Shown in pieces: positions 27,208 through 58,404 of a stretch of DNA of 64,000 nt. The notes beneath the pieces were generated by a model, which had not been told where the DNA came from, did no database searches, and worked only from the letters and a program-made list of their open reading frames with translations. The position numbers and the translations under genes were made by a program. This stretch comes from Trichoplax sp. H2 (lineage: Eukaryota). Within the stretch, counting starts at the first letter, position 1. Each line of letters begins with the position of its first letter. Where the stretch lies: NCBI GenBank assembly GCA_003344405.1, contig NOWV01000113.1, forward strand, positions 62,001 to 126,000, written 5' to 3'.

Positions 27208-30200
27208 ATGACCATATCTCCATTATCGCAACAAGGTAATGCGCGTGTACTGTAGAATTATTTTTTTAATAATTATAATCGCACACATTAGGATAAAGAT
27301 AGTATAGTAAAGCGCTGAATTTTATTATCGGCGTGTCTTAGGCCGATTTTTAATTACTCCAATATTGTTTTAAGGGATGAAAGAAACGTCAAAAAATCAA
27401 CCATCAGAGGATCTAAAATCCGTAAAACGTCTTCACCGACATGATAAAAGCATTATGCAATCCATACTGAAATTTCTGTATCAGCCGATCGATCCGTCAT
27501 CTCTTGGTATTACAAGGATTTTATTCGGTGAGAACTATCTACTGCACTTGACACGGTATTACTTAAATGGGTGTTCAATCTGTTTAAGTATGCTGCAGAA
27601 ATTAAATCTTATTTAAAACCTAGCTTTTAAATTAACTGTAAAATGCTATCTAGGCTTTTTGATGATCTTTGATATTACACAAGAACGTGGCATGGTTTAC
27701 ATCAACTTAAGATGGGGTGATCCGAAAGCCTGCGAATTTCCTTTACTAAGCAATTTACCAATCTTATCTGCTGACTGGATGCATATTTTGTATTTGTCGA
27801 TGATTGCTGCTGCTATCGGTATATGTATCGGATTTTACTATCGTATCGCTAGTATCTGGCTTGCACTAGGCCATTGGTACCTTATCTTGATAGATAAAAC
27901 TGCTTGGAATAATCATACATATCTTTTCGGCCTTTTTACAATCTTCTTTTCAGTTACGAATGCTAATCGATGGTGGTAAGTTGCCATATTTATTGATATT
28001 GAAGTATAGTTGTAACAAAAGAGAAATCACCACGATCACTTTAAAAGTGTGATATACGTATCGATGTAGATATCTCTTCTACATGGCTATTATGCTTCTT
28101 TTATCTACTACAATTTTAAGTTTACTAATTATATATAATTAATTAAACCCTATAATTTGAACAAAATCAAGGTCTGTTGATGGAGTCTTAAATCAAAAAA
28201 TTAATAATGTTCATATTCCACGTTGGAACTTAGCGCTGTTTCAGTTTCAGGTAAATACAACTACAAAATAAATTAAGTATGTGGTACCTTATCATCGGAT
28301 GACTTACTGTAAATATTTATACTTCGAAACAGATTTTCTTGGTATATTTCTTAGCTGGCGTGAAGAAACTTAATTCTGACTGGATTACGGGTAGTTCAGT
28401 TACGACGGTTGGCAGTCATTGGGTTTTTGCCCCTTTGCGTTTATTATTAACTACCCAACAAATAAGCCAATATGTTTTGCATTATGGTGGATTAATCTTC
28501 GATTTAATCGAAGGATACTTACTCTTTTTCAACATTACTCGACCCTTAGGAATTGCATTGGGCATTTACTTTCATATTTGTAATTCGCAGATTTTCACCA
28601 TAGGAATTTTCCCTTATGCTATGTTAGCCACTCTTCACATCTTTTGTAATCCTGATTGGCCAAAAAAAGTTATCATGAGGCTGTCACCTCGATGGAGAAA
28701 ATATTTCTTGCTCGATACACCACCAAAATATTCAGCATCCAATTGTTATTATAACGATTACAATCCAGATGACACTGGAAGTAGTGATCAAGAACGACTA
28801 GGTGATTCTGTTATAGAGAAGAAGTGGATACAGGAAGATTCCACTAAAACGAAAGGAATACAACAATTTAATTCACAAAATCGGCTGACGATGGCCATAC
28901 TAGCTGGATATGTAACTCTGCAACTTTTTCTACCCTTCTCTCATTTTATAACCCAGGTAAAAACTACTGGTATATACTGTCTAACAAATGTAATTGTCGA
29001 CTATGAGTATAGGATCATCTATTCATTTTAAGTCAAAATAGATTAAAGATATTTTCTGCATTATCTAGTTTAAATATTCCGTTCAAGATGTGATAGAAAT
29101 ACTTATCTCTTATATTAGGGCTACAATACATGGAATGAGCGTGGTCTTTACGGGTATTCGTGGGATATGATGGTAAATAGCTGGTCTTACCCTAAAATTA
29201 AAATCTTAGTTGTGGATTTATCTAATGGTAAACAGTATGGCGTTTTACCAAAGGTAATATAACTGCTAATTAAGGCAATCACTCAATATCAGATTTTATC
29301 AGTTCTTGCATTAGACCATGAATGTATTTACATCAGCATTCCATTTAAACGTCGCATTACCAAATTCTATACTTGAATATTTCGGTTCATATTTGTAATG
29401 CTTTCAAAATTGATGCTCCAAAATATTTATCAACTTATATAGTACGATATGTAATATCAATTTTATAATGACGATTTCATTAAGTGAATATAGTAAAATG
29501 GATATTTTGCAAGAAAATGGATGTACTAGCTATTAAGATCAGTATCAAGTAATAGCAAGGATAATTCATTTTATAAAACAACGTTATTTAAATGTTTATT
29601 TGTCTCCTATAAACTTATTAAAGTATCACGCTTCGATAATAATTATTACACATTGGTCAGAGTCCAATATTGCTAACTGAAATAGGTTCAATATAATGGC
29701 CGATAATTAATCTGTAATTAAAAAATATTTACCGCTCCATGATATAAAAATATTCTTGTGTATAAGTATTGATGCCGAATATGAGCGATGGTATAGCTAA
29801 TTTAAGATAATTTTTTATTAATTAATCTTATATCTTCATTTACATATATACTGCACTTTAGAGCTTTATTGGTGGCGCAGATTCAAGATTTCTACGCTGG
29901 AGTACTTATCCTAGCATGATTAAGCAATACGGCAATTGTCTTGCGAAACAAATGAAAACTTCGTATGAAATTAAACAGCCAGCAGTGTATTTGGATATTT
30001 GGAAGTCAATGAATGGTCGATTTAGGCAAAGGCTTATCAATCCAAAAGTTGACATCGTTTCTGCACCGTGGTCACCATGGAAAAAGACTCCCTGGTTAAT
30101 GCCATTGCTAGCTAATTTAACCAACTGGAGAAATAAAATGCCCGAGCTTAAGAAAAGATATTCTATAGACGATAAAAGTCGAATTATACGATTTTATGCT

Positions 30201-30665
30201 GATTTCCCTGGCTATACACAAGAAGTACCTGTTCCAGCTGCTCTGCAAGCTAACCTAACTGTCCTTGAAGGTCAAGTCGAGGTTAATGCTAGCCGTTACA
30301 TTTACAAATTAAACCCGAAAATGACAATTAGGTTACCTTCTAATGTCACACATACGGTCACTGTTACCTCCGAAAGGCCTGCCGCTTATTTCTATCGGAT
30401 TGAAAATGCAACGCTAGCAAGGATTCTAGCAGAAGAGAAGGAGAATATAAAAAATAGAGTAGAAGATTATAGCCCTAAGAGCTATCTTACTTATTTTAGC
30501 ACCAGCGTTCGATTCGTTACTGGAAATATAATAGAGTTTTTGAAAAGTAAAGTTTTAATTTATTATCACATTGCCATAAATACTTTCGATGCTATTCAAA
30601 ATATTATAGAATCCGAAAATATCACGGATTCAACTCTAGATTCAGTTTCGCCTTCTAATAATTAA
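27208..30665 (+). CDS. GGCX: Vitamin K-dependent gamma-glutamyl carboxylase, paralog 1. Exons 27208-27235, 27375-27527, 27654-27975, 28172-28250, 28333-28956, 29119-29253, 29862-30665
   Basis: Motifs PIDPSSLG.TRILFG, QERG, WNNHTYL, YFLAGVKKLNSDW (catalytic Lys), [28 protein letters not shown]. All junctions are GT-AG and in frame. Confidence 0.93.
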
Positions 30666-36262: not shown

Positions 36263-39200
36263 TTAGAATGTTTCTGATGATAAAATTTCGAAAAATTTCT
36301 CATGCATTAAAGCAGCTTCCTCGTGCTTACCTTGATCTTCATAAAGCTGTCCAATGGCGAAGTATAAACTTGCAATTGCTGGATGGTTATGATCAAGGAC
36401 CAATCGTCGAATTCTAAGTGATTTCTTAAACATAGAAATAGCCTCTTCATGATTCTTTTGATCACAATATATAGCTCCTAGATTACTATATGAGTCAGCA
36501 ATAGAAGGATGATTGTGACCAAGGAATGAACATTGAACTTTGAGTAACTTCTTATATGTAGAAATGGCCTCTTTAAGTTTACCTTGCTTAAAATAGGCGT
36601 TTCCCATGTTATTATATATTGCAGCAAGATCAGAATGATTATCACCAAGGATTGACAATTGAATTTTGAGTGAATTCTTATACATAGATATACTCTCCTC
36701 ATACTTTCCTTGGTCAAGATAGACATTTCCGATGTTGACATACGTCATGACAAGATCGGGATGATTATGACCTTGGACTGACAATCTAATTTCAAGTGAT
36801 TTCTTATGCATAGAAATAGCTTCTTTATATTTACCCTGTCTTCTATAGCAGATTCCTAAACTACTATATGAATGGGCAACTTGGTGATGATTGTGACCAA
36901 AAAGTGACAACCTAATTTTGAGCGATTTCTCATGCATAGAAATAGCTTCATCATCCTTTTCTAACTCGTAAAGGCTAAGCCCAATATTATTATATGCCAT
37001 AGCAAGATTGTGATCATCGCAGTCTGTGACTAATATTTGAATTTTAAGTGACTTCTCGTAATTAGAAAAGGCTTCTTCATACTTACGTTGAGCATAGTAA
37101 ATATTTCCTATCTCACTATATGATTGGGCGACATCAGTGTGATTATCACCTAAAGTGGACTTATGGATTTTGAGCGACTTTTCATACATAGAAATAGCCT
37201 TTTCATGCTTGCCCTGCTTAAAATAGGCATTTCCTAAGTCCTTATATGATCTAGCCATATCGGGATGATTGTCATCAAGAACAGATAATTTTACTTCGAG
37301 TGACTTCTTATACATAGAAATTGCCTGTTCACAATTTCCTTGATTCATATATGCAGTTCCTATTCTGCTATATGACATAGCCACTTTTGGATGATTATGA
37401 CCAAGGGTTGACAATCGAATTTTAAGTGCCTTCTTATGCATAGAAATAGCCTCTTCATGCTTATTCTGAATAGCATAAACAATTCCCATATTGTCCTTTA
37501 TATCAGCGATATGGGGATGATCGCCTTTATGGACTAATAATTCAATTCTGAGTGACTTCTCATACATCGTAATAGCTTCTTCATGCTTGCCTTGTTTAAA
37601 ATGCTCGTTCCCTAAATTGATATACGAATCAGCAATTTGGGGATGATCGTGACCGAGGACTGATAATTGAATATTGAGTAACTTTTCGTACATGGAAATA
37701 GCCTCTTCGTGACTTTCTTGTTTAGCATACTCATCAGCTAGATTGCTGAATGAATTAGCAACTTCGATATTATCTTCGCCAAAGACTGACGAACGAATCT
37801 TTAGCGATTGTTTATACATAGAAATGGCTTCTTTATGTTTACCTTGATCGCTATATACCATTCCTATATTGCTATATAATTTTGCAACTTCAGGGTGATT
37901 GTGGCCAAGGACTGATAATCGAATTTTGAATGATTTCTTATACATTGAAATAGCATCGTCATGCTTACCCTGACGAAAATAGACGTTTCCCATCTCATTG
38001 TATGATTCAGCTAAGTGGGGATTACTAGAGACTGATGATTGAATTTTGAGTGACTTTTCATACAGAGAAATAGCCTCTTCGAACTTTCTCTGATGAAAAA
38101 AAACATGCCCCATGTTACTATATGAATTGGCAATATCGGGATGACTATGATCAAGGACTGATAATTGAATTTTAAGTGCCCTCTCATACATAGTAATAGC
38201 ATCTTCAGATTTGCATAGATGAGCATAGGCATTTCCCAGATTTTTGTATGATATTGCAACATGAGGATGCTTGTCACCAAGGACTGACAATTGAATTTTA
38301 AGTGACCTTTTAAACATCTCAATGGCTTCTTCATACTTCTTTTGAATGGAATAAACTTGCCCTAAGTTGTTATATGACATGGCAACATCGGAATGATTGT
38401 GACCAAAGACTGACAATTGAATTTTGAGTGACTTGTTGTGCATAGAAATAGCCTTTTCATGTTTGCCCTGCTCCTGATATACAACTGCCATGTTGTTATA
38501 TGACTTAGCTACATCGTCATGCTCGTGACCAAAGACAGATAAATTAATTTTGTGTGATTTCTCGTACATAGAAATAGCATCTTCATACTTGCCCTGATTG
38601 TAATAGATATTTCCAATATTATTGTATAATGCAGCAACATCTAGGTGATTACTACCAAGAGTAGACAGATAAATTTTAAGTGACTTCTCATACATAGAAA
38701 TAGCCTCTTCATGCTTGTTCTGATTTCTATACACAATGCCTATGCTATTATATGATCTAGCAACATCAGGATGATTGTGATCATAGACTGATAGTCGAAT
38801 TTTGAGAGATTCCTCGAACACAGAAATAGCTTTTTCATACTTGTTTTGATCACAGTAGACCCATCCTAAGTTATAATATGATGCAGCAACATCAGGATGA
38901 TTATGGCCGTGGGCTGATAATCGAATTTTGAGCGACTTCTCGAGCATAGAAATAGCTTCTTCAAGCTTGCCTTGCTTTCTGTAGATAGTACCAATATTGT
39001 TATAAGACTGAGTAACGTCAGGATGATTATGGCCAAGGGCTGATAATCGAATTTTGAGCGACTTCTCGAGCATAGATATGGCTTCTTTATGCTTACCTTG
39101 ATCGCCATACACAATTCCGAGATTGTCATATGATGCAGCAACATCAAGATGGTTATCACCAAGGGCTGACAATTTAATTTTGAGTGATTTCTTATACAAA

Positions 39201-40063
39201 GATATAGCAACTTTGTACTTCTTTTGACTTTGGTAGATCTTTCCTAAGTTGTTGTATGATTTGGCAACATCAGGATGAGTCTGACCAAGGGCTGACAATC
39301 GAATTTGGAGTGACTTCTCAAACATAGAAATCGCCTTATCCCAATTGTTCTGGCTAAAGTAGACGTTTCCTAGACTATCATACGACGTTGCCACGTCAGG
39401 ATGATTATAACCAAGAACTGATACCTGAATTTTGAGTGATTTCTCATACATAGACATGGCCTCTTCACTCTTGTCCTGACACTGGTAGATATCCCCTAGG
39501 CTACTGCATGACTTGATGATATCGAGATGATTGCGACCAGAAACTGATAATTCAGTTTTGAGTTCCTTCTCAAGCATAGGAAGAACCTTGGCTATGCTTT
39601 GAGAATCAGTAAAATCTACATACAAAAAATTCTCGGTATCTACACCCTCCTTGTCTAACAAATTTAATATTAAATCCTGAAATTTCATTTGATCTTCTTC
39701 CACTGCCCCATTCCAGTCTCCTCGTAATTGCTTAATACCACCTTGCTTGTCTAAGCATTGAGCAATTAATAATTCTTCCTGTAGCTTTTCAGCTAGTTCT
39801 TGTGCTTTTTTACGGAATTTTTCTGCTTTTATGCATTCACTTCGCTTTATGTATATATCCACAGTAAGTAGATAAATGTTGCATTGAAGTCGATCAAGAT
39901 CAGCATCACTTGTACTTTGGGATATCGTCTGAATTTTATCCAAGGCTTGTGTATAGTAAGATAACGCTTCACTAAGATTGCCAGATTGGTGATTAACGAA
40001 ACCTTTATTGAATACAGATATTATATCCTCAGGGATAGTAAACTTGATCGGTTGATTCTCCAT
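36263..40063 (-). CDS. Intronless tetratricopeptide-repeat protein, 1266 aa, ~26 tandem 42-aa TPRs (kinesin-light-chain/nephrocystin-3-like type)
   Basis: Single ORF with the repeating unit HPDVAxSYNNLGxVYxxQGKxEEAISMYEKSLKIxLSxLGxN after a ~170-aa N-terminal region. No P-loop motif seen. Confidence 0.93.
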   Translation of the reverse strand: MENQPIKFTIPEDIISVFNKGFVNHQSGNLSEALSYYTQALDKIQTISQSTSDADLDRLQCNIYLLTVDIYIKRSECIKAEKFRKKAQELAEKLQEELLIAQCLDKQGGIKQLRGDWNGAVEEDQMKFQDLILNLLDKEGVDTENFLYVDFTDSQSIAKVLPMLEKELKTELSVSGRNHLDIIKSCSSLGDIYQCQDKSEEAMSMYEKSLKIQVSVLGYNHPDVATSYDSLGNVYFSQNNWDKAISMFEKSLQIRLSALGQTHPDVAKSYNNLGKIYQSQKKYKVAISLYKKSLKIKLSALGDNHLDVAASYDNLGIVYGDQGKHKEAISMLEKSLKIRLSALGHNHPDVTQSYNNIGTIYRKQGKLEEAISMLEKSLKIRLSAHGHNHPDVAASYYNLGWVYCDQNKYEKAISVFEESLKIRLSVYDHNHPDVARSYNSIGIVYRNQNKHEEAISMYEKSLKIYLSTLGSNHLDVAALYNNIGNIYYNQGKYEDAISMYEKSHKINLSVFGHEHDDVAKSYNNMAVVYQEQGKHEKAISMHNKSLKIQLSVFGHNHSDVAMSYNNLGQVYSIQKKYEEAIEMFKRSLKIQLSVLGDKHPHVAISYKNLGNAYAHLCKSEDAITMYERALKIQLSVLDHSHPDIANSYSNMGHVFFHQRKFEEAISLYEKSLKIQSSVSSNPHLAESYNEMGNVYFRQGKHDDAISMYKKSFKIRLSVLGHNHPEVAKLYSNIGMVYSDQGKHKEAISMYKQSLKIRSSVFGEDNIEVANSFSNLADEYAKQESHEEAISMYEKLLNIQLSVLGHDHPQIADSYINLGNEHFKQGKHEEAITMYEKSLRIELLVHKGDHPHIADIKDNMGIVYAIQNKHEEAISMHKKALKIRLSTLGHNHPKVAMSYSRIGTAYMNQGNCEQAISMYKKSLEVKLSVLDDNHPDMARSYKDLGNAYFKQGKHEKAISMYEKSLKIHKSTLGDNHTDVAQSYSEIGNIYYAQRKYEEAFSNYEKSLKIQILVTDCDDHNLAMAYNNIGLSLYELEKDDEAISMHEKSLKIRLSLFGHNHHQVAHSYSSLGICYRRQGKYKEAISMHKKSLEIRLSVQGHNHPDLVMTYVNIGNVYLDQGKYEESISMYKNSLKIQLSILGDNHSDLAAIYNNMGNAYFKQGKLKEAISTYKKLLKVQCSFLGHNHPSIADSYSNLGAIYCDQKNHEEAISMFKKSLRIRRLVLDHNHPAIASLYFAIGQLYEDQGKHEEAALMHEKFFEILSSETF

Positions 40064-41159
40064 GTTAAAATCTGAAACACTAAAGCGATATCGGTAATAG
40101 TTAGTGAATGTGAAACAGTTTTATCCAGCAACCTCTAACACGGGTAAACTGAAAAAACTTAGTAGCAAACTGAAGATCACTTCTATCTACGTTAAGACTT
40201 CAGTGGTTTTTTCCTCCCGTGGTCGGTTTTAAGACCGCATCAAGATTATAAAACTTCAGCGCAAACTATGGCAAAAAAGCTATTTGCTATATGTACTTTG
40301 TATATTTAATTAGGAAGAATACAAGACCGTTGTACGAGTAGGGAGGGTCCTAGTCGTCATTTAGTACTTCCAAAATACTCGTCAACAATTTTCTGTTATT
40401 ATTCCGTAAGAGCTGCGAAGTACTGTTTAGTAGAGAGTAGTTTTAGTAGCTAAACCATCCAGATACGGAAGTTAATCGCTCATAAGCAGATTAAAATATG
40501 CCAAAGCAATGGGTTCAATGGTCATTAGGTTCAGTACATCTTCATACAGTAAATTAGTAAGTTTCGGTTTCATTATCCACACAGGCAATGAGTATTATGT
40601 ATTTTATATCCGTAGAAGAAACATCATGGTCACTAAAGATATCACTAGTAACGTGATACTGCGGAATTACTATAAGCTTGTTCAAGCTAGGTTAGTGATA
40701 GTAGTCTCTGACCTATAGTATCATGGATTCAATCCTCACTAAAGATTCCTACAGATACATATTTTGGAGTACACTATCATTCGATGTTTAAAATTCATGT
40801 AGCACTGTGAATCATTTACCATACCCCAATAATCCGGTCAGTAGTAGGACTACATTAGAGTAGTGCAGTAATTTATCATGTTCGTTATCATGCCTAGATG
40901 AGATAAACGTTTAACCCTTAAGGTTCGCGGTCCGATAACGTAAAGTTGGGGTTTTTAAAAGGATGCCGTTTCATCATATCAGTCAAAATTAAGAGTAACT
41001 TTATTAGAAAATCCGAGTATTCTACGTCACATAGTGCTTTCATTCATATTACTATCAGACTTTCAAAATATATAACTACTGTAATTATCTAAAATCATTG
41101 CATATTCTTTAGTATCTTCAGCAGTAAACAATACGGTATCCCAATTAGCTTCAGTTATA

Positions 41160-47735: not shown

Positions 47736-50700
47736 ATGGCACCATCTAATCCAGGTATTTTTACAATTTCAAAATAAATTCAGTATTTGTCAAATTTGTC
47801 ACTACTTTATCTTTTAATATTTTGAAAACGCTTCGATAGAAAAAATGACATCCAGTACTCCAATTCAAGAAAATAGTAAAGCTAAATGTAGTAATCAACT
47901 GAATCTAAAACATCTTAATCATTTGGATGGATGGATGCGGAAAGTCATGGAGTTCCTATATCATCCAATTGATCCTTCGTCTCTCGGTATAACGCGTATT
48001 CTCTATGGTAAGAAATAGATTCATCCAAAACCATTGCAATAACTTGAATCTATTACCGGCATTTAACGTGGAATTGAACGATTTTAATTCGTAAATATGA
48101 ATTCACAATCCAATACCTGGCTAAGGAGATAATTTGTTATTAGTACAACAGTAAGAGGTGATTGTCCAATAATTGAGAGAAGTTTGAAACTTAAATTCGG
48201 ACAATTAGAATATAATTTTTAAGTTTTAAATCTCTTACTAAAACATTAGCGTCATGGGTAAAGTATTTACAGTAATTATAAATGATTATTTATAAACTCA
48301 CTTAGCTAGATTACAGTTGATGCAATTTCTAATCTTTGATGAATTGATAGGGGATACTTTAGCTACAGCATTATTACGGGTAGCTGCAATGCTATAATAC
48401 AACTTTTGTAGCCTTTTAATCTGTTGCTAATGGATTGTCATCGACAATTAGGATTTTTAATGATTGTTGATACAACTCAAGAACGAGGAATGGAAAAGAT
48501 TCCTTACAAATACAAAGATCCAGAAGCTTGTTTTTTCCCACTATTTAATATACTAACACCGTTATCTGCCGATTGGATGCATGTAGTCTACTTATCGATG
48601 ATTATTGCAGCATTCTGTATTTGCATTGGTTTTTGTTATCGTTTCGTTACCATTTGGCTAGCAGTTTGCTATTGGTATGTTTTCCTCTTAGACAAGACAA
48701 CATGGAATAATCATTCTTACTTGTTTGGCCTGTTTGCGTTATTCTTTTCTTTTACCAAAGCAAATCGATGGTGGTAAGTATTAACAATTTCTTCTAATAC
48801 TATAATATTACATGGCTCATTTCATTACATTCCATGCCAGTAATTAGCATCATATTCACTTTAAAATTACTTCATTTCAATAATCAAGTCGGCCTTTGAG
48901 TGACTATAATTTCAGTAAATTTGTAAATCTTACCTCTATTAGTGCGAGAGGATATCTACTCTACCTATAGCTATAAAAGAATTGTAAACATCTTATAGTA
49001 GTCCTTTCAAATTTTCCGATGAATAATAATCATAATACTTCCGAGTGTACCTTTTCGTAAGATTAACTCAGTTAATTTCATAAAAATAATAATTAATCAA
49101 TATATTTTACCGGAAAAATAGCATCAGCCTCATAATTTTAGTAGTTTTTGTAATTTCAAATAGAGATAACTTAATCTTTTAAAGCACACAGTAATCTCAT
49201 CTAAATTTGAAGTTTAATTCATAGTACTAACAACAGCATCTAATAATAGAGCAGAAAGATTATAAAGCTCTAAGTAAATAATTGTAGTCAGGTATTGCCT
49301 CATTTAGCTACGTAATATAAATTCTTGAATTTGTCTGATACTTTAATTTATAACGAATCAACAGAATAGCTGGCTAAATTGATCCCTTAAAACTTTATGA
49401 TTACAAATATGTGAAAATTTTAAGGAAAATTAACCTGTCATAGTCTGATTTTATTTCCTTTCTACCTTACTAAATGATTCCTTTTACTATATTAAAATCA
49501 TATATAAAAAATATTTTAGCTCTGTGGATGGAAAATTAGACCAGTCAATTCGAAATACCCACATTCCTCGATGGCATCTAGCTTTATTTCAATTTCAGGT
49601 ACAATTTCTAGGTTATTTAATTGCATTATGAGATGTCATAATATAAGTTGAGAAGGTCTTAATCCTTACAATAGCTACTGTTAGAGAATAGTCAAATGTA
49701 ATTATTACAACTTTCAATTTGAAATATCATAAAATCACTATAAATTTGCTGATAAAGTAAATAATAAATTTATGGGTGCTAAAGATTTTGAGATCCCTTA
49801 GTTTCGAATTTACTCTCTTTATTGAAAGATCTTTCTAGTCTACTTTTATGCTGGAATAAAAAAATTAGATCCAGACTGGATAACTGGTAATTCAATGGTA
49901 TCCTTAGAAGCACATTGGGTATTTTCCTTATTTCACTATGTTCTAACTCCGGAGCAAGTTAACTTGTATATTGTTCATTATGGGGGATTTGCTTTCGACT
50001 TAATGGAAGGATTCCTATTATTTTTTGACATCACACGGCCAATTGGGCTACTGTTGGGATTTTATTTTCACTTTTCCAATGCTTGTATGTTTACTATTGG
50101 TATCTTTCCATATGCTATGTTAGCAACATTACCGATATTCTGTAGACCGGACTGGCCTAAAAGATTACTTGTAAAAACCCCACAACGTTGGCAACGCCAT
50201 TTCATTATTGATGCACCTAAAAATTATTCCTCATCAGATTGTTATTATTATGCTGATGAACGAAATAGCTCTGATCAGTGCACGAAAAATAAACCTAGTA
50301 AGCAAAGTACCGAAATCAAAGATAGTAATCAAGGCATTGCAGTAAACTCTGCAAAATTAGGAATTCGGCGCTTTACAAAGAAAAATAAATTTACGTTATT
50401 TGCTTTGAGCTGTTATATCGCTATTCAGCTCTTTTTGCCATTCTCACATAACGTTACCAAGGTTTGTTTTTGTCTTTACTTAATCACAAAATTTTTAAAT
50501 ATAGTTATCGAAATTAGGTGAAACACTTATCGCGTTAATAGTCCATATTTTAGTAGTTAAGTACTGTTTTTCAAAAGACTATTCCACGTTCGACATTGAT
50601 CTATTTGTTTAAAATTATTTTCCATTAAACCTTAGGGATATACTGGCTGGGACGATCATGGTCTATATGGATACTCTTGGGACATGATGGTTCATACTTG

Positions 50701-51735
50701 GGCAACACAGCATGTTAAAATAACAGTCGTCGATCTTTCAAATGGCCGGCAATTTCATCTCAAGCCTTCTGTATGTTATAAATATGCGTTGGTTGTTAGA
50801 TAATTATAGTGATACATTTATAGCTTTATACTGTCTATGAAAGTGCTTACATACGGTAACCATGTCGTATTAACATGGTGTAGAGATTGTTTTCAATTTT
50901 ATAGATAAATAAGAATTTTAACGTTTACTATTACATAACGATAATGTAGAGTTTCCTTGTTGGGTCGGCGAAATTCAGCGATCGTTGGAATTCTCATCCT
51001 GACATGATTAAGCAATATGCTACTTGCATCGGCCGCCGTGTGAAGAAGTTAGGTGTTAAACAACCCGCAGTTTATTTCGATATTTGGAAATCGATGAACC
51101 GTCGATTTAAACAACGAACAGTTGATCCATCTGTTGATGTGCTTGCAGCTCCATGGTCACCGTTTACCAAGACGCCATGGATGATGCCATTACTCAAAGA
51201 CTTTACGTGGTGGAGATCGAAAATGGTTGAACTGGATGAGAAATTATTGAATGATAGTATTACCTTGTCAACGAATTATGTAGCTGATTTCCCGGGCTTT
51301 ACACTGGAAAATTTTATACCGGAAGTTTATCGAGTGAATTTAACAGTATTACAAGGTACAGTACGCATTAGTGTTGGACAGAAAGGCCACAACATCGACG
51401 CTAATCAAACAGCAATTTTGCCAAATAATAGAACTCACGAAGTTCGCGTAGTATCCAAAGAACCGGCCAGCTATTACTATCTTTTCAGTAATATTACAAT
51501 GGAAAAGATGATTGATCAAGAATTAAATAAGATTAACAGTACTGAAGAAACTGCCAAGAATGGTACTACTACATACTTAAAATCTATAAAAAAGAAATTA
51601 ACTCCAATTTATCGCTTCATCTATCTCAAAGGACTTCTCTACTACCATATTGGCAACAATACAATCAACGCTTTAAGCAACATACTAAGAAATTGCAATT
51701 GCGATCAGAATTTGTTGCCGACTAATAAACCTTAG
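47736..51735 (+). CDS. GGCX: Vitamin K-dependent gamma-glutamyl carboxylase, paralog 2. Exons 47736-47754, 47840-48007, 48452-48773, 49520-49598, 49829-50461, 50636-50770, 50950-51735
   Basis: Same seven-exon layout as paralog 1. Motifs WNNHSYL, YFYAGIKKLDPDW, GLYGYSWDMMVH, MIKQYATC, ADFPGFTLENF. Confidence 0.93.
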
Positions 51736-54283
51736 CCGATGGCGCTATTTTATCCGTAATTACAGCATAATATGATAGGTTTGGCCTTGACGTAGAGTAA
51801 ATCATCCTCCAATTTTCACCGATAGCTGGGTAACGGATACATGTTTAATGATCTTAATACAGCTTTTTGATAAAGTTTTCCAGCCTATTACAGAAATTAC
51901 TTAAAAGTGAGGAGATCATGAATTATTACGTTAATATTGCGATGTTTACTCTTTGAGGCAAAATATCAACAGTTATTGATCTTGATTAAATTTGGAATAA
52001 GCGTATGAAAGTAGTTTTTGATTTTAGTAAAAGCAATAAAACTGTGGCAATTTAAAATAATTGTAGATTACTTTTCTTGTTATCCTCAATTAAAATAAAA
52101 ATCAACGTCAAAGTCGACTCTTCCAGCGTGATTTAAGGCTTCATGAATGATTCTAATGTGGTATAAGGTTATTCTAATAATAATGACTCTTCGAAAATCT
52201 CACATTTATTTCGATGAAGTTGTAGTTTTAGAACACCGACAATAAGCACGATAATTGATATTTAAAGACTATCGAGAAACATTGTTTCTGTGCATTAATC
52301 TATTGGTAAAGAGTCGCGTAGATTCAAAAAAGTAACGGTTTAACAAAGTTTTGTGAATCAAATTAATTAAGATCAGCGAGTTTGAAGTGTTAATCTTTTA
52401 GTGGATCATTGTAGAGAAGCCTATCGAAAAAGAATTTTATCTGATCTTTAAACCAACTGAGAAGAACTGGTGGAATAGATATAAAATTAATAAGGAACCA
52501 AAATATGTGACAGTCTCCAACCTCTGCATACGATAGTAGACAGTGAGTAAACATCTCAAGCTATAGTATATCAGAAAACGATATTTTTGTGTGTGTTTTC
52601 GTGTTCCGTATTGGCTACCTTTAATAACAGTTTCAAGTCCCAATTTATTTGCCATACGGCATTTCATTATTTTAACTCGTTATTAGCCATTCAAGAACTT
52701 TTTGTTAATATGATCGTAGTTCAGTTAAAAAAAAACACTAGCTTTCATAATGATAAAGTTTTTCTCTTGGGACTTGCTATAGTCAAGATAAAGTCGTAAT
52801 GCAAATTATGCATAACAATAAAATTATTTTATATAAAGTCTTATATGCGACAATATATTGTCTTCTAGTGCTACTTTATCCTTTCCAAATTCAATCATTT
52901 TACAATAATACTGTATTAAAATAACCCTGAAGCCTAAAAAGTCACTTCTATCCTCATAAGCGACTATTGTTAAAGTAGATGTGCAACACAGATTCATCCA
53001 TCTTAAATTTACCGCCGTCTCAATGATGGATGCACAGTACTGTAGTGATTATAGTAAGGACCAAAGACGTCTTACCATACCCGTATATCGTATCTACTAT
53101 CTAGTGGCCCATGACTATATACATATATTCAAAGATGGCTATAACAGCGTTAATGAATTATTCATTACACATTTGTACTTGATTACGGAGTCTACTATTA
53201 ACTAGAAGAAAGTAAGCCTAGGCATGACTACTAATAGGTTTTCTTTTGGTATCATGGCCTAGATCAGCAGCAGTACTATATACTGCAATACAAATTTATC
53301 AGTCAGAAATTGAATGTACTCTCAGTACCTTAAATTAAAGGAAAGAAACTTTTTAAATTGAACGGATGTTGCCCTGGGCTTCGTAGTCCGCTAATAACCT
53401 TCGAAAGGGCAGTGTATGCTATCTGAAGTAGTCGGTAAATTGCGCTAGCAATGGCAGTGATACACAGCTCCATGCGCGCTACCATCACATGAATGGACCC
53501 ACACGAAAATCGACCTATATTGTCTCAATTACACCATATTCAAGTATGATAATCATCGTAAGGTAAGATTATTTTTAAGTTAGACGATGCAGTCCACCAA
53601 TGGCCTTAAGAAAATAATCTATATCTACGTAGTTAACCATACATTTCGACTATAATGCAAATAAATTTCCGCACAATTCATTGTTACTTCAATTAACACC
53701 GTTGCAAAGTAAGTGAATGTAATTCTGAGATTACTCATCTTTTATTAGAATGCATAATCCATTAGTAAAGTAACTTTCAATCTATAGAATGGAATAAGCT
53801 TAAGAAAATATGTATAAGATAAAATGCATGATTATTAACACTTTGACTTATGGGAATACTGTGAATAATACCTGTATTAACTTTCAACAGGCTTATTGTG
53901 AAGTATTAAAAAAACATATCACTGCGATTAGTAGGCACCAAATTCCCTGGAGATGTACCAAGTATAGTCATTCGTGCTTTACATTCAAGTTAATTAGCTA
54001 AATGGGCTTCCGAATTTTAATGAAGTCCCATATGGTAACCGTTCACAGCATGTTTTGTAGCATTAGACAAATGTTATGACAAACTATTGTTTGTGAAAAA
54101 AAAGTACTTTTTCTCAATCTGGCCTTAGCAGAATCATTTAGCGTTAGAGATTTTGACTTGTTATTTTTTGAGGGTCGCTATAGCTTATACTTTTAGAAAA
54201 TTTATAAGATTGATTTGATATAAGAATTTTGTAGTGCTGCTTTAGTGCCTACCGAAAACGGTTCCTATCGTCAATTTTCAACG

Positions 54284-57200
54284 ATGTTTGGCACTAGGAA
54301 GTTGATACAACTCTTACTTTTTAGCTATTTACTTCATTTTGCCATCGCCGTAAGTTTCAATTAGATCAAATTTATTTATTCTATACTGTACAGTATTAGG
54401 CACTCCCTTTTTCCTTCATTAACTCTATTAAACAAACATGCATAGTGATATCTGAAATGGAGTAATGATTCTGGTAATAAATCCACAAATTACTTGAATT
54501 TCTACCTTCTCTTTTTCTAGGTATTTCAACCGTTTCAACCCAAAACATGTCTTGAAATAGCAAAACATAACGCAAATCGTGGCAAGCGCGCAATCGAATA
54601 TAATGATAAAAGTAGTGGTAACCATAACTTAGACCATTCGGCAGGCAAGTTTTGAATCGATGTTAGTTTTAATTTTAATGGCTTTTACTATCATTCAAAA
54701 AGTTAACGATTCATAAATAATCTCTACGTTTAGACTCTGCTCTTAGAAACGGTATCTATTGGAGTGATAAAGATAAAAAATATCTAGACAGTTTTGATCA
54801 TGTTTTTACTGCGAAATATCCCATCGGAGGACGACCACCACAACTTGTTAGCAATCCTGAAGGTTGGACTGGAAACTCCCGGCCTTATATAGATAGCTAT
54901 GAGCAAGTTTCCACCGAGAAAAAACCTGGCCTAAAACCACAGGCAGATTTTAGTCAACTAAAGGGTTGGTCAAAAAGCGGTAAATTTTTTCTAGATAAAT
55001 ACGATCATGTCTTTACTGAGAAGAAACCTGGTGTAAAGCCACGACCAGATTTTAGTCAATTTCATGGTTGGACGGCAGACGGTTTACCTGGTCTAGGAGT
55101 TGGTGGTCAATGGGGAGGCAAAAAACCCTACGTAGATGGTCTTACACCAGGTAACTGGCCGAATCACGGTGGAGATGGCGTTCGTAAGCCAACACAATCA
55201 GGTTGGGCACATGGAAAACCACCGTACGTTGATGGTCTTAGTGGAGGAGGAAGCTGGTGGAATAATGGCGGACAAGGTAATCATAAACCAACACAATCGG
55301 GATCAGGTTCGGGGTCAGGATCAGGATCAGGATCAGGTTCTGGATCAGGTTCTGGATCAGGTTCTGGTTGGGGATTTGGTACTCATAAACCGTCGCATAA
55401 GCCAAATGCAACAGGATCAGGATCAGGTTCAGGTTGGGGTTCCGGCACAAGTAAACCGACTGGATCATCAGGATCAGGCTCGGGTTGGGGTTCTGGTACA
55501 AGTAAACCGACTGGATCCTCAGGCTGGGGATTTGGCAGTAATAAACCCACAGGATCAGGATCAGGCTGGGGTTCTGGCACAAGTAAACCGACTGGATCAG
55601 GCTCCGGCTCAGGTTGGGGATTTGGTACTAATAAACCTACAGGATCAGGATCGAGCTCAGGCTCAGGCTGGGGATTTGGTACTAATAAACCTACAGGATC
55701 AGGCTCAGGTTGGGGTTCTGGCACAAGTAAACCGACTGGATCCTCAGGATCAGGCTCAGGCTGGGGATTTGGTACTAATAAACCTACAGGATCAGGATCA
55801 GGATCAGGTTGGGGTTCTGGCACAAGTAAACCGACTGGATCTTCAGGATCAGGCTCAGGCTGGGGATTTGGTACTAATAAGCCTACAGGGTCAGGATCAA
55901 GCTCAGGCTCAGGCTGGGGTTCTGGCACAAGTAAACCGACTGGATCATCAGGATCAGGCTCAGGCTGGGGATTTGGTACTAATAAACCTACAGGATCAGG
56001 ATCAAGCTCAGGCTCAGGCTCAGGCTGGGGTTCTGGTACAAGTAAACCGACTGGATCTTCAGGATCAGGCTCAGGCTCAGGCTGGGGATTTGGTACTAAT
56101 AAACCTACAGGATCAGGATCAGGCTCAGGCTCAGGCTGGGGTTCTGGCACAAGTAAACCGACTGGATCATCAAGCTCAGGCTCAGGCTGGGGATTTGGTA
56201 CTAATAAACCTACAGGATCAGGCTCAGGTTGGGGTTCTGGCACAAGTAAACCGACTGGATCTTCAGGATCAGGCTCAGGTTGGGAACTTGGTACTAATAA
56301 ACCTACAGGATCAGGATCAAGTTCAGGCTCAGGCTCAGGCTGGGGTTCTGGCACAAGTAAACCGACTGGATCATCAGGATCAGGCTCAGGCTCAGGCTCA
56401 GGTTGGGGTTCTGGCACAAGTAAACCGACTGGATCTTCAGGATCAGGCTCAGGCTGGGGATTTGGTACTAATAAACCTACAGGATCAGACTCAGGTTGGG
56501 GTTCTGGCACAAGTAAACCTACTGGATCATCAGGATCAGGCTCAGGTTGGGGTTCTGGCACAAGTAAACCGACTGGATCTTCAGGATCAGGCTCAGACTG
56601 GGGATTTGGCACTAATAAACCTACAGGATCAGGCTCAGGTCCAGGTTGGGGTTCTGGCACAAACAAACCGACTGGATCTTCAGGATCAGGTTCAGGCTCA
56701 GGTTGGGGTTCTGGTACAAGTAAGCCGACTGGATCAGGATCAGGCTCAGGTTGGGGTTCTGGCACAAGTAAACCGACTGGATCTTCCGGATCAGGTTCGG
56801 GCTGGGGTTTTGGTACTAATAAACCTACAGGATCTGGCTCAGGTTCAGGTTCAGGTTGGGGTTCTGGCACAAGTAAACCGACTGGATCTTCAGGATCAGG
56901 CTCAGGCTCAGGTTGGGATTCTGGCACAAGTAAACCGACTGGATCATCAGGCTCAGACTCAGGTTGGGGTTCTAGCACAAGTAAACCGACTGGATCATCA
57001 GGCTCAGGCTCAGGTTGGGGTTCTGGTACAAGTAATCCGACTGGATCATCAGGATCAGGCTCAGGCTGGGGATTTGGTACTAATAAACCTACAGGATCAG
57101 GATCAGGCTCCGGTTGGGGTTCTGGCACAAGTAAACCGACTGGATCTTCAGGGTCAGGCTCAGGCTCAGGTTGGGGTTCTGGCACAAGTAAACCGACTGG

Positions 57201-58404
57201 ATCTTCAGGATCAGGCTCAGGTTGGGGTTCTGGTACTAGCAATCCGACTGGATCATCAGGATCAGGTTCAGGCTCAGGCTCTGGTTGGGATTCTGGTACA
57301 AGTAAACCAACTGGATCATCAAGCTCAGGCTCAGGCTGGGGTTCTGGCACAAGTAAGCCAACTGGATCTTCAGGATCAGGCTCAGGTTGGGGTTTTGGCA
57401 CGAGTAAACCAACTGGATCATCAGGATCAGGATCTAGCTCAGGCTCAGGCTCAGGTTGGGGTTCTGGCACAAGTAAACCGACTGGATCATCAGGATCAGG
57501 CTCAGGTTGGGGTTCTGGCACGAGTAAACCGACCGGATCATCAGGCTCAGGCTCAGGCTCAGGCTCAGGTTGGGGTTCTGACACAAGTAAACCAACTGGA
57601 TCATCAGGATCTGGCTCAGGCTCAGGCTGGGGATTTGGTACTAGTAAACCTACAGGATCAGGCTCAGATTGGGGTTCTGGCACAAGTAAGCCGACTGGAT
57701 CATCAGGATCAGGCTCAAATTTGGGAACTGCATCATCAGGCTCAGGAGGGAGTCAAATTAAAAATAATAATGGATACTATACATTATATGATGCTGGGAA
57801 TTTGCCTTACATGGCGTACTGTGACTTCAAATCTGATAATAACTATGTTTGGACTTTGATAACATCGTTCTCTCGCGAAAATGGAAATCATGCTGCTTTG
57901 TCACCATATGGTAAACCATTCCGAAAGCCGCTCTCGCAAAATTTTCCTAGCTACGAAAATCAAGCGGATAATTGGAATAAATTACGTTTTGACCTTCCTA
58001 GAATGAACTTAATTAAAACACATTCCACACACTGGCGTGCAACTTGTAATTTCCAACAAACCGAAATATTAGCAAATCACAAAGATTATGTACGAGGAGC
58101 CCTTAAGACGCTGGATATAATTACTGCGCTTGGCAATAAGTGCGCTGCAGTAGAATATTTTAATGTTGATGGTAAAGGTTGTAGTAACTGCAAGATACCC
58201 GTTTCGACTATACAGGATAGTCTCTTTGGGGGTAACAGGATGCCTTATGTCCCTGTAAAGCATTTTTCTAAGTGTGGCACTCCAATTGCTATTACGGACA
58301 ACACTGAAAATCTGTTTGGTAATTACGATGGAAAGTCTCATACCTTTTCCTGCTCCAAAGCTAGCACTTCTACTACAAATTGGTGGTTAGGTGGACGTAT
58401 CTAA
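54284..58404 (+). CDS. Secreted ~1277-aa Gly/Ser/Trp-repeat protein with a split fibrinogen/intelectin-like domain. Exons 54284-54349, 54521-54617, 54734-58404
   Basis: Exon 1 is the signal peptide [22 protein letters not shown] followed by GTAAGT. Exon 2 is [32 protein letters not shown]. Exon 3 reads in the same frame as the track ORF 57721-58404 (NGYYTLYD...AYCDFKSD...WTLI...[10 protein letters not shown]...STTNWWLGG). No stop was seen in the repeat. Confidence 0.85.
55300..57750 (+). repeat. Coding tandem repeat of alternating (GS)[14 protein letters not shown] and (GS)[11 protein letters not shown] units
   Basis: Directly visible DNA units GGCTCAGG(T/C)TGGGGTTCTGGCACAAGTAAACCGACTGGATC and GGCTGGGGATTTGGTACTAATAAACCTACAGGATCA. 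Confidence 0.95.

Follow-up and report, generated by a model that had tools for sequence, protein, structure and literature searches.

A Trichoplax sp. H2 gene for a secreted intelectin-like lectin whose domain is interrupted by a 1033-residue basic repeat insert

The gene, its transcript and a widely separated cysteine pair

We analyzed a 64,000-nucleotide stretch of Trichoplax sp. H2 DNA (contig NOWV01000113.1 of assembly GCA_003344405.1, positions 62,001 to 126,000, forward strand; the whole of this stretch is called the window below), in which positions 54284 to 58404 hold a three-exon gene for a lectin with a long internal repeat. Joining the three exons by coordinates gives a product of 1286 residues that opens with a signal peptide, called by eye rather than with a predictor from its basic n-region, hydrophobic core and A-x-A end; this is followed by a short conserved segment with Cys32, an RGKR motif, a long repeat, and a C-terminal part whose Y-C-D motif contains Cys1093. 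The original prediction, made from the sequence alone, had seen in this order a fibrinogen/intelectin-like domain split by an insertion of about 1000 residues together with a cleavage site, and the sequence features that it named all lie at the positions it gave. The lectin family and its placozoan expansion are already known, the latter from PMC6321704; what is new here is that the domain is split by an insert.

In a set of 153 relatives the Y-C-D...W-T-L pattern occurs 139 times, spread over 126 proteins, and 95 of the 139 occurrences have at least 45 residues upstream. In 93 of these 95 domains a cysteine lies 22-38 residues ahead of the YCD cysteine (27-31 residues in 81 of the 95), in keeping with the short loop that the original prediction had described for the family; the two remaining domains have odd N-termini and no long insert. 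In the window protein the distance from Cys32 to Cys1093 is 1061 residues; both halves of the cysteine-pair motif of subdomain A are present, with abnormal spacing. A long insert in this loop occurs in none of the 95 domains, a count in which truncated gene predictions could hide cases, and the insert is unique among the sampled relatives. That the family pair forms a disulfide is borne out by ANGPTL3 and ANGPTL4, in which subdomain A (a helix and two strands) is held together by the bonds Cys246-Cys274 and Cys188-Cys216, respectively, each spanning 28 residues, according to PMC5928061. In literature searches that did not reach bioRxiv supplements or most subscription journals, we found no title or abstract in which a repeat divides a fibrinogen-related or intelectin domain. 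Four short motifs of the window protein have no exact counterpart in the supplementary files of PMC6321704, although a gapped alignment file among them could hide such matches.

The gene is transcribed and spliced. Logan contigs from four sequencing runs were aligned to positions 53900-55290; runs X12 and X15 are recorded as RNA, and X4 is guessed to be RNA. Such contigs drop rare forms and do not fix the true transcript start; their 5' ends lie at 54043 (X4), 54086 (X15) and 54140 (X12). The GT..AG joint 54349/54521, foreseen by the original prediction, is found in three of the four runs (X12, X15 and X4, one contig each), while the fourth run, X8, gave only unspliced pieces, i.e. DNA or pre-mRNA. 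The same three contigs carry a second joint that aligns at 54642/54732, with 2 ambiguous letters and 89 nucleotides skipped; exon 2 is taken to end at 54644 because only the 54644/54734 placement has recognized splice ends (GC..AG). The original prediction had put this junction at 54617/54734, and its acceptor and reading frame hold, whereas its donor does not: the GC site at 54645 makes exon 2 longer by 27 nucleotides, or 9 residues. Exon 2, on which the notion of a split domain depends, is included in all three spliced contigs. Neither a loose end nor an alternative joint is seen in the RNA contigs at exon 2 or in the first 557 nucleotides of exon 3, and no splice connecting exon 2 with the distal end of the repeat appears either, an absence that proves nothing given that the contigs drop rare forms. 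The X15 and X4 contigs extend 152-171 nucleotides past 55290, into the repeat.

Three further observations concern the gene as it stands in the window. An intron of the GC-AG type, such as intron 2, would escape a GT-only gene finder, and our homologue searches found no public protein model of the lectin gene. RNA contigs labelled with a second organism differ from the window at a few places, including 54766 and 55008, the G>A difference at 54766 reading as Asp to Asn. The lectin domain is present as a single copy in the window, in which G+C outside the lectin gene is 32%. The features of the gene are collected in Table 1.

Table 1. Features of the lectin gene (window coordinates; nt, nucleotides)
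Feature	Positions	Strand	Basis or remark
5' untranslated part, start approximate	54043..54283	+	RNA contigs running into exon 1
Exon 1: ATG at 54284 and 22-residue signal peptide ending AIA	54284..54349	+	sequence; joint 54349/54521
Intron 1, GT-AG, 171 nt	54350..54520	+	skipped in X12, X15 and X4 contigs
Exon 2, 41 codons and 1 nt: first lectin-domain segment, RGKR, 18 further residues	54521..54644	+	all 3 spliced contigs
Family motif segment with Cys32 (helix alpha-1 of subdomain A)	54536..54571	+	20.6 bits; profile alignment to intelectin P-R-S-C-K-E-I
PKTCLEIAK	54539-54565	+	Cys32 codon 54548-54550
RGKR, residues 42-45: proprotein-convertase consensus and G-K-R amidation-type signal	54578..54589	+	N-terminal edge of insert
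Intron 2, GC-AG, 89 nt, donor CAG/GCAAGT	54645..54733	+	X12, X15 and X4 contigs
Exon 3, single open frame to stop codon	54734..58404	+	sequence; RNA joint at its start
Older degenerate repeats, two unit types, Cys-free	54734..55295	+	start of exon 3
Young tandem array	55296..57717	+	Tandem Repeats Finder; unit listing
Rest of intelectin/fibrinogen-related domain, NG-x-Y strand to C-terminus	57766..58401	+	homology, AlphaFold2
NNGYYTLYD	from 57766	+	WTLI downstream
AYCDF cysteine codon (Cys1093)	57820-57822	+	
Stop codon TAA	58402..58404	+	sequence

The lectin domain and its displaced first segment

The C-terminal part is a member of the intelectin/fibrinogen-related family, as the original prediction had it, on the combined evidence of homologues, profile and structural matches. 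Of 194 candidates returned by a homologue search, 5 reach E<=0.001, and the best three are Trichoplax proteins of 271-276 residues with 35-37% identity. TrispH2_000462 and TrispH2_000463 match with E values of 4.5e-31 and 8.7e-29 (35% identity, 89% coverage), and both appear in the 'Putative Intelectins (FReD containing)' list in a supplement of Kamm et al. 2019 (PMC6321704). The window protein thus shares whole-domain similarity with the placozoan intelectin-like family (PANTHER PTHR16146 according to Kamm et al. 2019) and departs from the contiguous domain and length of about 250 residues that mark that family, having 1286 residues and its cysteines 1061 apart. A wider search yielded 514 cluster representatives at E<=0.001, 226 of them at 1e-10 or better, and a profile built from 55 members retrieved intelectins first (E 1.6e-9 to 1.1e-6), then ANGPTL3, tenascin, fibrinogen beta and gamma, and ficolins, always over the P-x-S-C...G-x-Y...Y-C-D...W-T-L stretch. 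The near-invariant residues of the family are all intact in the window protein. The canonical Pfam family, PF00147, is recognized in just 11 of the 55 relatives, and weakly (best E 4.2e-7). The best-scoring relatives, P0006 (1379 residues) and P0030 (1503 residues), are Ala/Gly-rich and contain 3-4 tandem copies of the domain, each preceded by a Cys-rich spacer; both look bacterial by composition, so the domain family may not be confined to animals.

Structure prediction places the domain in the same family. Given the family alignment, AlphaFold2 models the C-terminal 235 residues with a predicted local distance difference test (pLDDT) score of 86.4 and a predicted template modelling score of 0.85, residues 1-19 being disordered. 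In VIA-align the five best matches are all intelectin-type lectins, namely Xenopus XEEL (Z 9.2), human intelectin-1 (8.8 and 8.7) and a lamprey lectin (8.7), with root-mean-square deviations of 4.2-5.1 Å over 187-196 aligned residues, and ficolins and other proteins follow at Z <=7.4; this ranking points to an intelectin-type fold, with top scores of 8.7-9.2 that are barely above the program's stated background of Z 7-8. Designed Kelch-like proteins, found in a single-sequence search of the PDB, matched weakly and over a short C-terminal stretch only, and were taken as chance.

The segment that the C-terminal part lacks is found in exon 2. A 12-residue matrix built from 108 family segments and run over ungapped, stop-free windows in all six frames of the 64 kb scores the exon-2 segment at 20.6 bits, first of 54,345, with the next at 9.5; a cruder gapped hidden Markov model of the N-terminal segment placed the exon-2 piece only third of 2,780, with an E value of 0.25. 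When the 41 residues of exon 2 and residues 20-235 of the C-terminal part were docked as two chains, the interaction prediction score from aligned errors (ipSAE) was 0.89 (runs 0.89, 0.90 and 0.87) against 0.03 for the best control; the mark applied is reached by 51 of 78 solved complexes and by 2 of 108 mismatched pairs. At least 96% of contacts are shared between runs, the partner pLDDT is 60-62, and the contact predicted with least error joins domain Cys42 (Cys1093 of the protein) to peptide Cys10 (Cys32). The peptide interface comprises residues 6-15 and 17-18, leaving the RGKR (peptide residues 20-23) outside. The product has 8 cysteines (32, 1093, 1168, 1200, 1213, 1216, 1244 and 1270), an even number only if that of exon 2 is counted, and together with the cysteine-on-cysteine docking this favors the proposal of the original prediction that the exon-2 segment completes the domain. 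The same evidence speaks to the idea that the protein is a peptide precursor, i.e. that a peptide of about 20 residues is released from its N-terminus through the G-K-R, amidated and used as a signal, with the remainder as carrier. Amidation and cleavage are classically signalled by G-K-R, and peptides of this type are in use in placozoans, as PMC12013895 describes; the peptide in question is, however, a conserved segment of the lectin domain whose cysteine pairs with the YCD cysteine in relatives, and its release would leave an odd number of cysteines behind, so that we consider a precursor role hardly credible.

Docking of two separate chains is blind to whether they belong to one molecule or to two. 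A domain swap, in which the N-terminal segment would complete the lectin domain of the next molecule and Cys32-Cys1093 bonds would link molecules head to tail into a covalent, cationic, Trp-studded mucus or adhesive polymer, is thus compatible with the predicted score of 0.89 for parts modelled as separate chains. The linker is very long, and a rough Gaussian-chain estimate puts the effective intramolecular concentration at tens of micromolar, similar to that of an abundant cargo of the endoplasmic reticulum (ER); in addition, intelectins form disulfide-linked oligomers through other cysteines, according to PMC9434060. Under such a scheme a cut at the RGKR would decide between polymer and monomer and would limit or dissolve chains and networks. 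Folding in the ER usually favors the intramolecular partner, though, and we rate the swap as quite unlikely.

The repeat insert and the RGKR site

The insert, which is Cys-free, runs for 1033 residues from the RGKR to the residue before NNGYYTLYD. Similarity to the paralogues ends about 10 residues past the cysteine, where the RGKR starts, and resumes a few residues before the N-G-Y-Y. Its 1033 residues include 317 Gly (31%), 279 Ser (27%), 98 Thr (9.5%), 66 Lys, 65 Pro (6%) and 54 Trp, with only 29 acidic ones, and Trp and Lys-Pro-Thr come back throughout its length; over the 1015 residues of exon 3 that precede the domain the net charge is +44, and there is one N-x-S/T sequon. The main part of the insert is an array that begins with a (GS)n run and continues with 45 units of W-G-[S/F]-G-T-[S/N]-K-P-T-G-S, each followed by a variable Ser/Gly spacer for a total of 13-23 residues per unit; Tandem Repeats Finder reports periods of 51 and 105 in the array. 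Ahead of it lie the older repeats, for which comparison of unit pairs with shuffled sequences gives z 24.3 and z 9.9. This pre-repeat part, 185 residues of which are present in the mRNA contigs, has no homologue (searched as 185-190 residues) among proteins of 672-2139 or 101-324 residues, no usable match in the ESM Atlas and no Pfam family past cut-off (best E 0.084 and 0.1). Its AlphaFold2 pLDDT of 40.5, obtained from the single sequence, is compatible with disorder and, in the absence of an alignment, ambiguous.

The repeat is under coding constraint. Across 43 unit cores, differences from the consensus number 6, 34 and 107 at the first, second and third codon positions, corresponding to 100 synonymous and 38 non-synonymous codon changes, and the reading frame is maintained through 45 units of differing length. 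The flanks of the array contain no stop codons in the lectin frame and 8-28 in the other two. Open frames other than that of the lectin also span the repeat (907 codons at 55136-57859 on the + strand and 789 codons at 55383-57752 on the - strand); we read these as by-products of the low-complexity array and not as genes, the splicing showing that the lectin frame of the + strand is the one used.

These observations bear on the possibility that the functional product is something other than the long form, either because the repeat is spliced out from within exon 3 to leave a lectin of about 250-300 residues or because the gene is a decaying member of the family. With several frames open over the repeat, an open frame proves little there, and the ending of the contigs soon after the repeat begins and the missing protein model would both fit such a form. 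The absence of a loose end or extra joint at exon 2 and in the first 557 nucleotides of exon 3 argues the other way, as do the pre-repeat part in the mRNA, the frame kept over 45 units of variable length, the concentration of differences at third codon positions, and the intact 8 cysteines and near-invariant family residues. We therefore consider a spliced-out or decaying form very unlikely.

The RGKR is the only R-x-[KR]-R in the 1286-residue product and, by its sequence, is a candidate proprotein-convertase substrate: it lies in a predicted secretory protein and outside the predicted docking interface. Dibasic processing and PAM have been reported from placozoan secretory cells in PMC12013895, the same source (Mayorova et al. 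2025) placing placozoan intelectins in dorsal epithelial cells, mucocytes and other cells. The motif might nevertheless be incidental and the protein an uncut single chain, whose disulfide would close a loop of 1061 residues so that the repeat, flexible and closed at its base, would stand out from the lectin head. There is a single basic site, no orthologue was found that could show its conservation, basic residues are common in the same loop of relatives that have no insert, and PMC12013895 describes one placozoan cell type in which expression of known convertases is absent, so that processing depends on cell type. Against an incidental motif stand the full R-x-K-R consensus and its position, exactly at the boundary of the insert and outside the predicted interface. 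On balance we hold an uncut chain to be possible but somewhat unlikely.

Proposed working, wider meaning and comparison with known systems

Our reading of the locus as a whole, to which we give a probability of roughly 0.5, is that the gene is expressed from three exons and encodes a secreted lectin of 1286 residues, which belongs to the 'intelectin-like' branch that placozoans have within the fibrinogen-related superfamily and which is first closed into a loop and then cut at the RGKR. Most likely the 1033-residue, Gly/Ser/Thr-rich and strongly basic insert grew in subdomain A, in the short loop that leads from its first helix to its first strand. After removal of the signal peptide, the N-terminal segment of about 20 residues would pack back onto the C-terminal body, and the Cys32-Cys1093 bond would form as in ordinary members, closing the insert into a loop; packing and bond together we judge likely. 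A furin-type convertase of the secretory pathway would then open the loop by cutting after the RGKR, a step that we propose tentatively, its odds falling a little short of even. In the product a disulfide would hold a small light chain to a heavy chain, the latter having a flexible, cationic N-terminal tail of about 1030 residues, which is probably glycosylated. The tail could hold or space the glycan-binding head in mucus, in the glycocalyx or on anionic surfaces; this role is our guess from its composition.

A number of points weigh against this reading. We infer the cleavage, amidation, disulfide and glycosylation, and by our own estimate the chance of a lone R-x-K-R in the non-repeat part is about 0.08. 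The complex predictor is not calibrated on peptides, and the docked chains are the halves of one fibrinogen-related domain, so the high score is possibly a recall of that solved fold. The original prediction had treated a C-terminal domain complete without the PKTCLEI segment as telling against it, and in part this is what is seen: the C-terminal 235 residues fold confidently without the exon-2 segment (AlphaFold2 pLDDT 86.4); a complete domain does not follow from that fold because the YCD cysteine would be left unpaired. Assignment to the family is not uniform across methods, Pfam finding no family in the C-terminal 235 residues, in exon 2 or in the 1222-residue open reading frame, with the cut-off of PF00147 / IPR002181 not reached, and Foldseek returning nothing from the PDB at E<=0.001 (best 1.2e-3), all of its listed rows being fibrinogen-related or intelectin chains. 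The synonymous excess in the repeat does not count independent events, because inherited copies are included, and the in-frame unit lengths could stem in part from slippage of 6-nucleotide units; the array can be read through in several frames, on either strand, and openness alone is therefore weak evidence of coding there. The contigs end 152-171 nucleotides past 55290, so that splicing may occur deeper inside the repeat. Finally, homologue searches found no orthologue of the lectin gene from which conservation of the insert and of the RGKR could be judged, and the RNA labelled with a second organism is near-identical throughout, so its unchanged exon 2 says little on conservation. The original prediction put forward an 'activation switch' as a possibility, together with a 'mucus or adhesive' function, and both are no more than inference here as well.

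Fibrinogen-related and intelectin lectins are seen as compact heads made in a single piece, which owe their multivalency to coiled coils, collagen stalks or extra cysteines. If our reading is true, the window protein took another route, with a giant low-complexity insert grown inside the lectin head and tolerated, we propose, because the conserved disulfide can re-join both parts. A single proteolytic cut may then turn the protein into a lectin of two chains with a tail, which would illustrate from nature to what extent a domain can be divided and remain in use. Mucus, gliding adhesion and the control of surface microbes in an animal of the placozoan type depend on a few secretory cell types, and the protein is a candidate structural or adhesive component of what such an early-branching animal secretes. 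Where immune-lectin families have expanded, members that carry repeats can go unnoticed. The domain-swap polymer, if true, would polymerize on a principle unlike that of gel-forming mucins or of ZP proteins.

Other genes were recognized elsewhere in the window. Two vitamin K-dependent gamma-carboxylase-like genes lie about 21 kb apart on the + strand at 28303-30665 and 49826-51735, both copies with exons for HTTM (E about 1e-42) and for the VKGC lumenal domain (E 1e-25 to 1e-27). A single open frame of 1285 codons at 36263-40120 on the - strand consists nearly entirely of TPR repeats (TPR_12 over 18 stretches; nephrocystin-3-like TPR).

The closest known proteins are the other placozoan intelectins. 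Kamm et al. 2019 (PMC6321704) list 31 putative intelectin genes in Trichoplax sp. H2, with signal peptides, lengths of about 250 residues and mostly clustered positions. TrispH2_000462, TrispH2_000463 and TRIADDRAFT_62745 have in common with the window protein the signal peptide, the domain (about 90% of the C-terminal part aligns, at 35-37% identity), the motifs P-x-S/T-C-L-D/E-I, N-G-x-Y, Y-C-D-F and W-T-L, and a conserved cysteine framework, of which the window protein has 8 members and most placozoan proteins in that source have 10. Whereas the domain of the described placozoan intelectins is contiguous and their genes lie mostly in clusters, that of the window protein is split by an insert bearing the RGKR and its gene is alone in the 64 kb. 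Canonical fibrinogen-related domains (ficolins, angiopoietin-like proteins, tenascin, fibrinogen beta and gamma) are more distant, with structural Z scores of 6-7.4 and a Pfam family, PF00147, that does not match the window protein; their subdomain A has the same helix, two strands and Cys-Cys bond with a spacing of 28 residues (PMC5928061), in place of the 1061 found here. Among solved structures the domain is matched best by the vertebrate intelectins or X-type lectins (human intelectin-1, Xenopus XEEL, lamprey serum lectin), which also lead the profile-to-sequence matches over its first 55 or so residues; sequence similarity is confined to this N-terminal part, identity in the structural alignment is 10-12%, and the matched solved chains have no long insert in this loop.

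The putative cut and the insert each have parallels outside the lectins. Notch with its S1 cleavage, PMEL with its M-alpha and M-beta chains, and integrin alpha chains are convertase-cut two-chain proteins of the secretory route whose parts are held together. As in these proteins, the furin-type site of the window protein is exposed, inside a folded unit or next to it, and the fragments would stay together, here via the predicted disulfide; it differs in that the putative cut lies at the edge of a giant low-complexity insert in a lectin domain and in that the light chain would have only about 20 residues. The PTS (Pro/Thr/Ser) domains of mucins and the Ser-Gly repeat of serglycin are long, Cys-free, Ser/Thr/Gly-rich tandem repeats with many Ser-Gly dipeptides. 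The insert of the window protein resembles them in its length, its Cys-free Ser/Thr/Gly tandem repeats and its Ser-Gly dipeptides, and differs from them in being dominated by Gly, in being basic and not acidic, and in carrying Trp at regular intervals.

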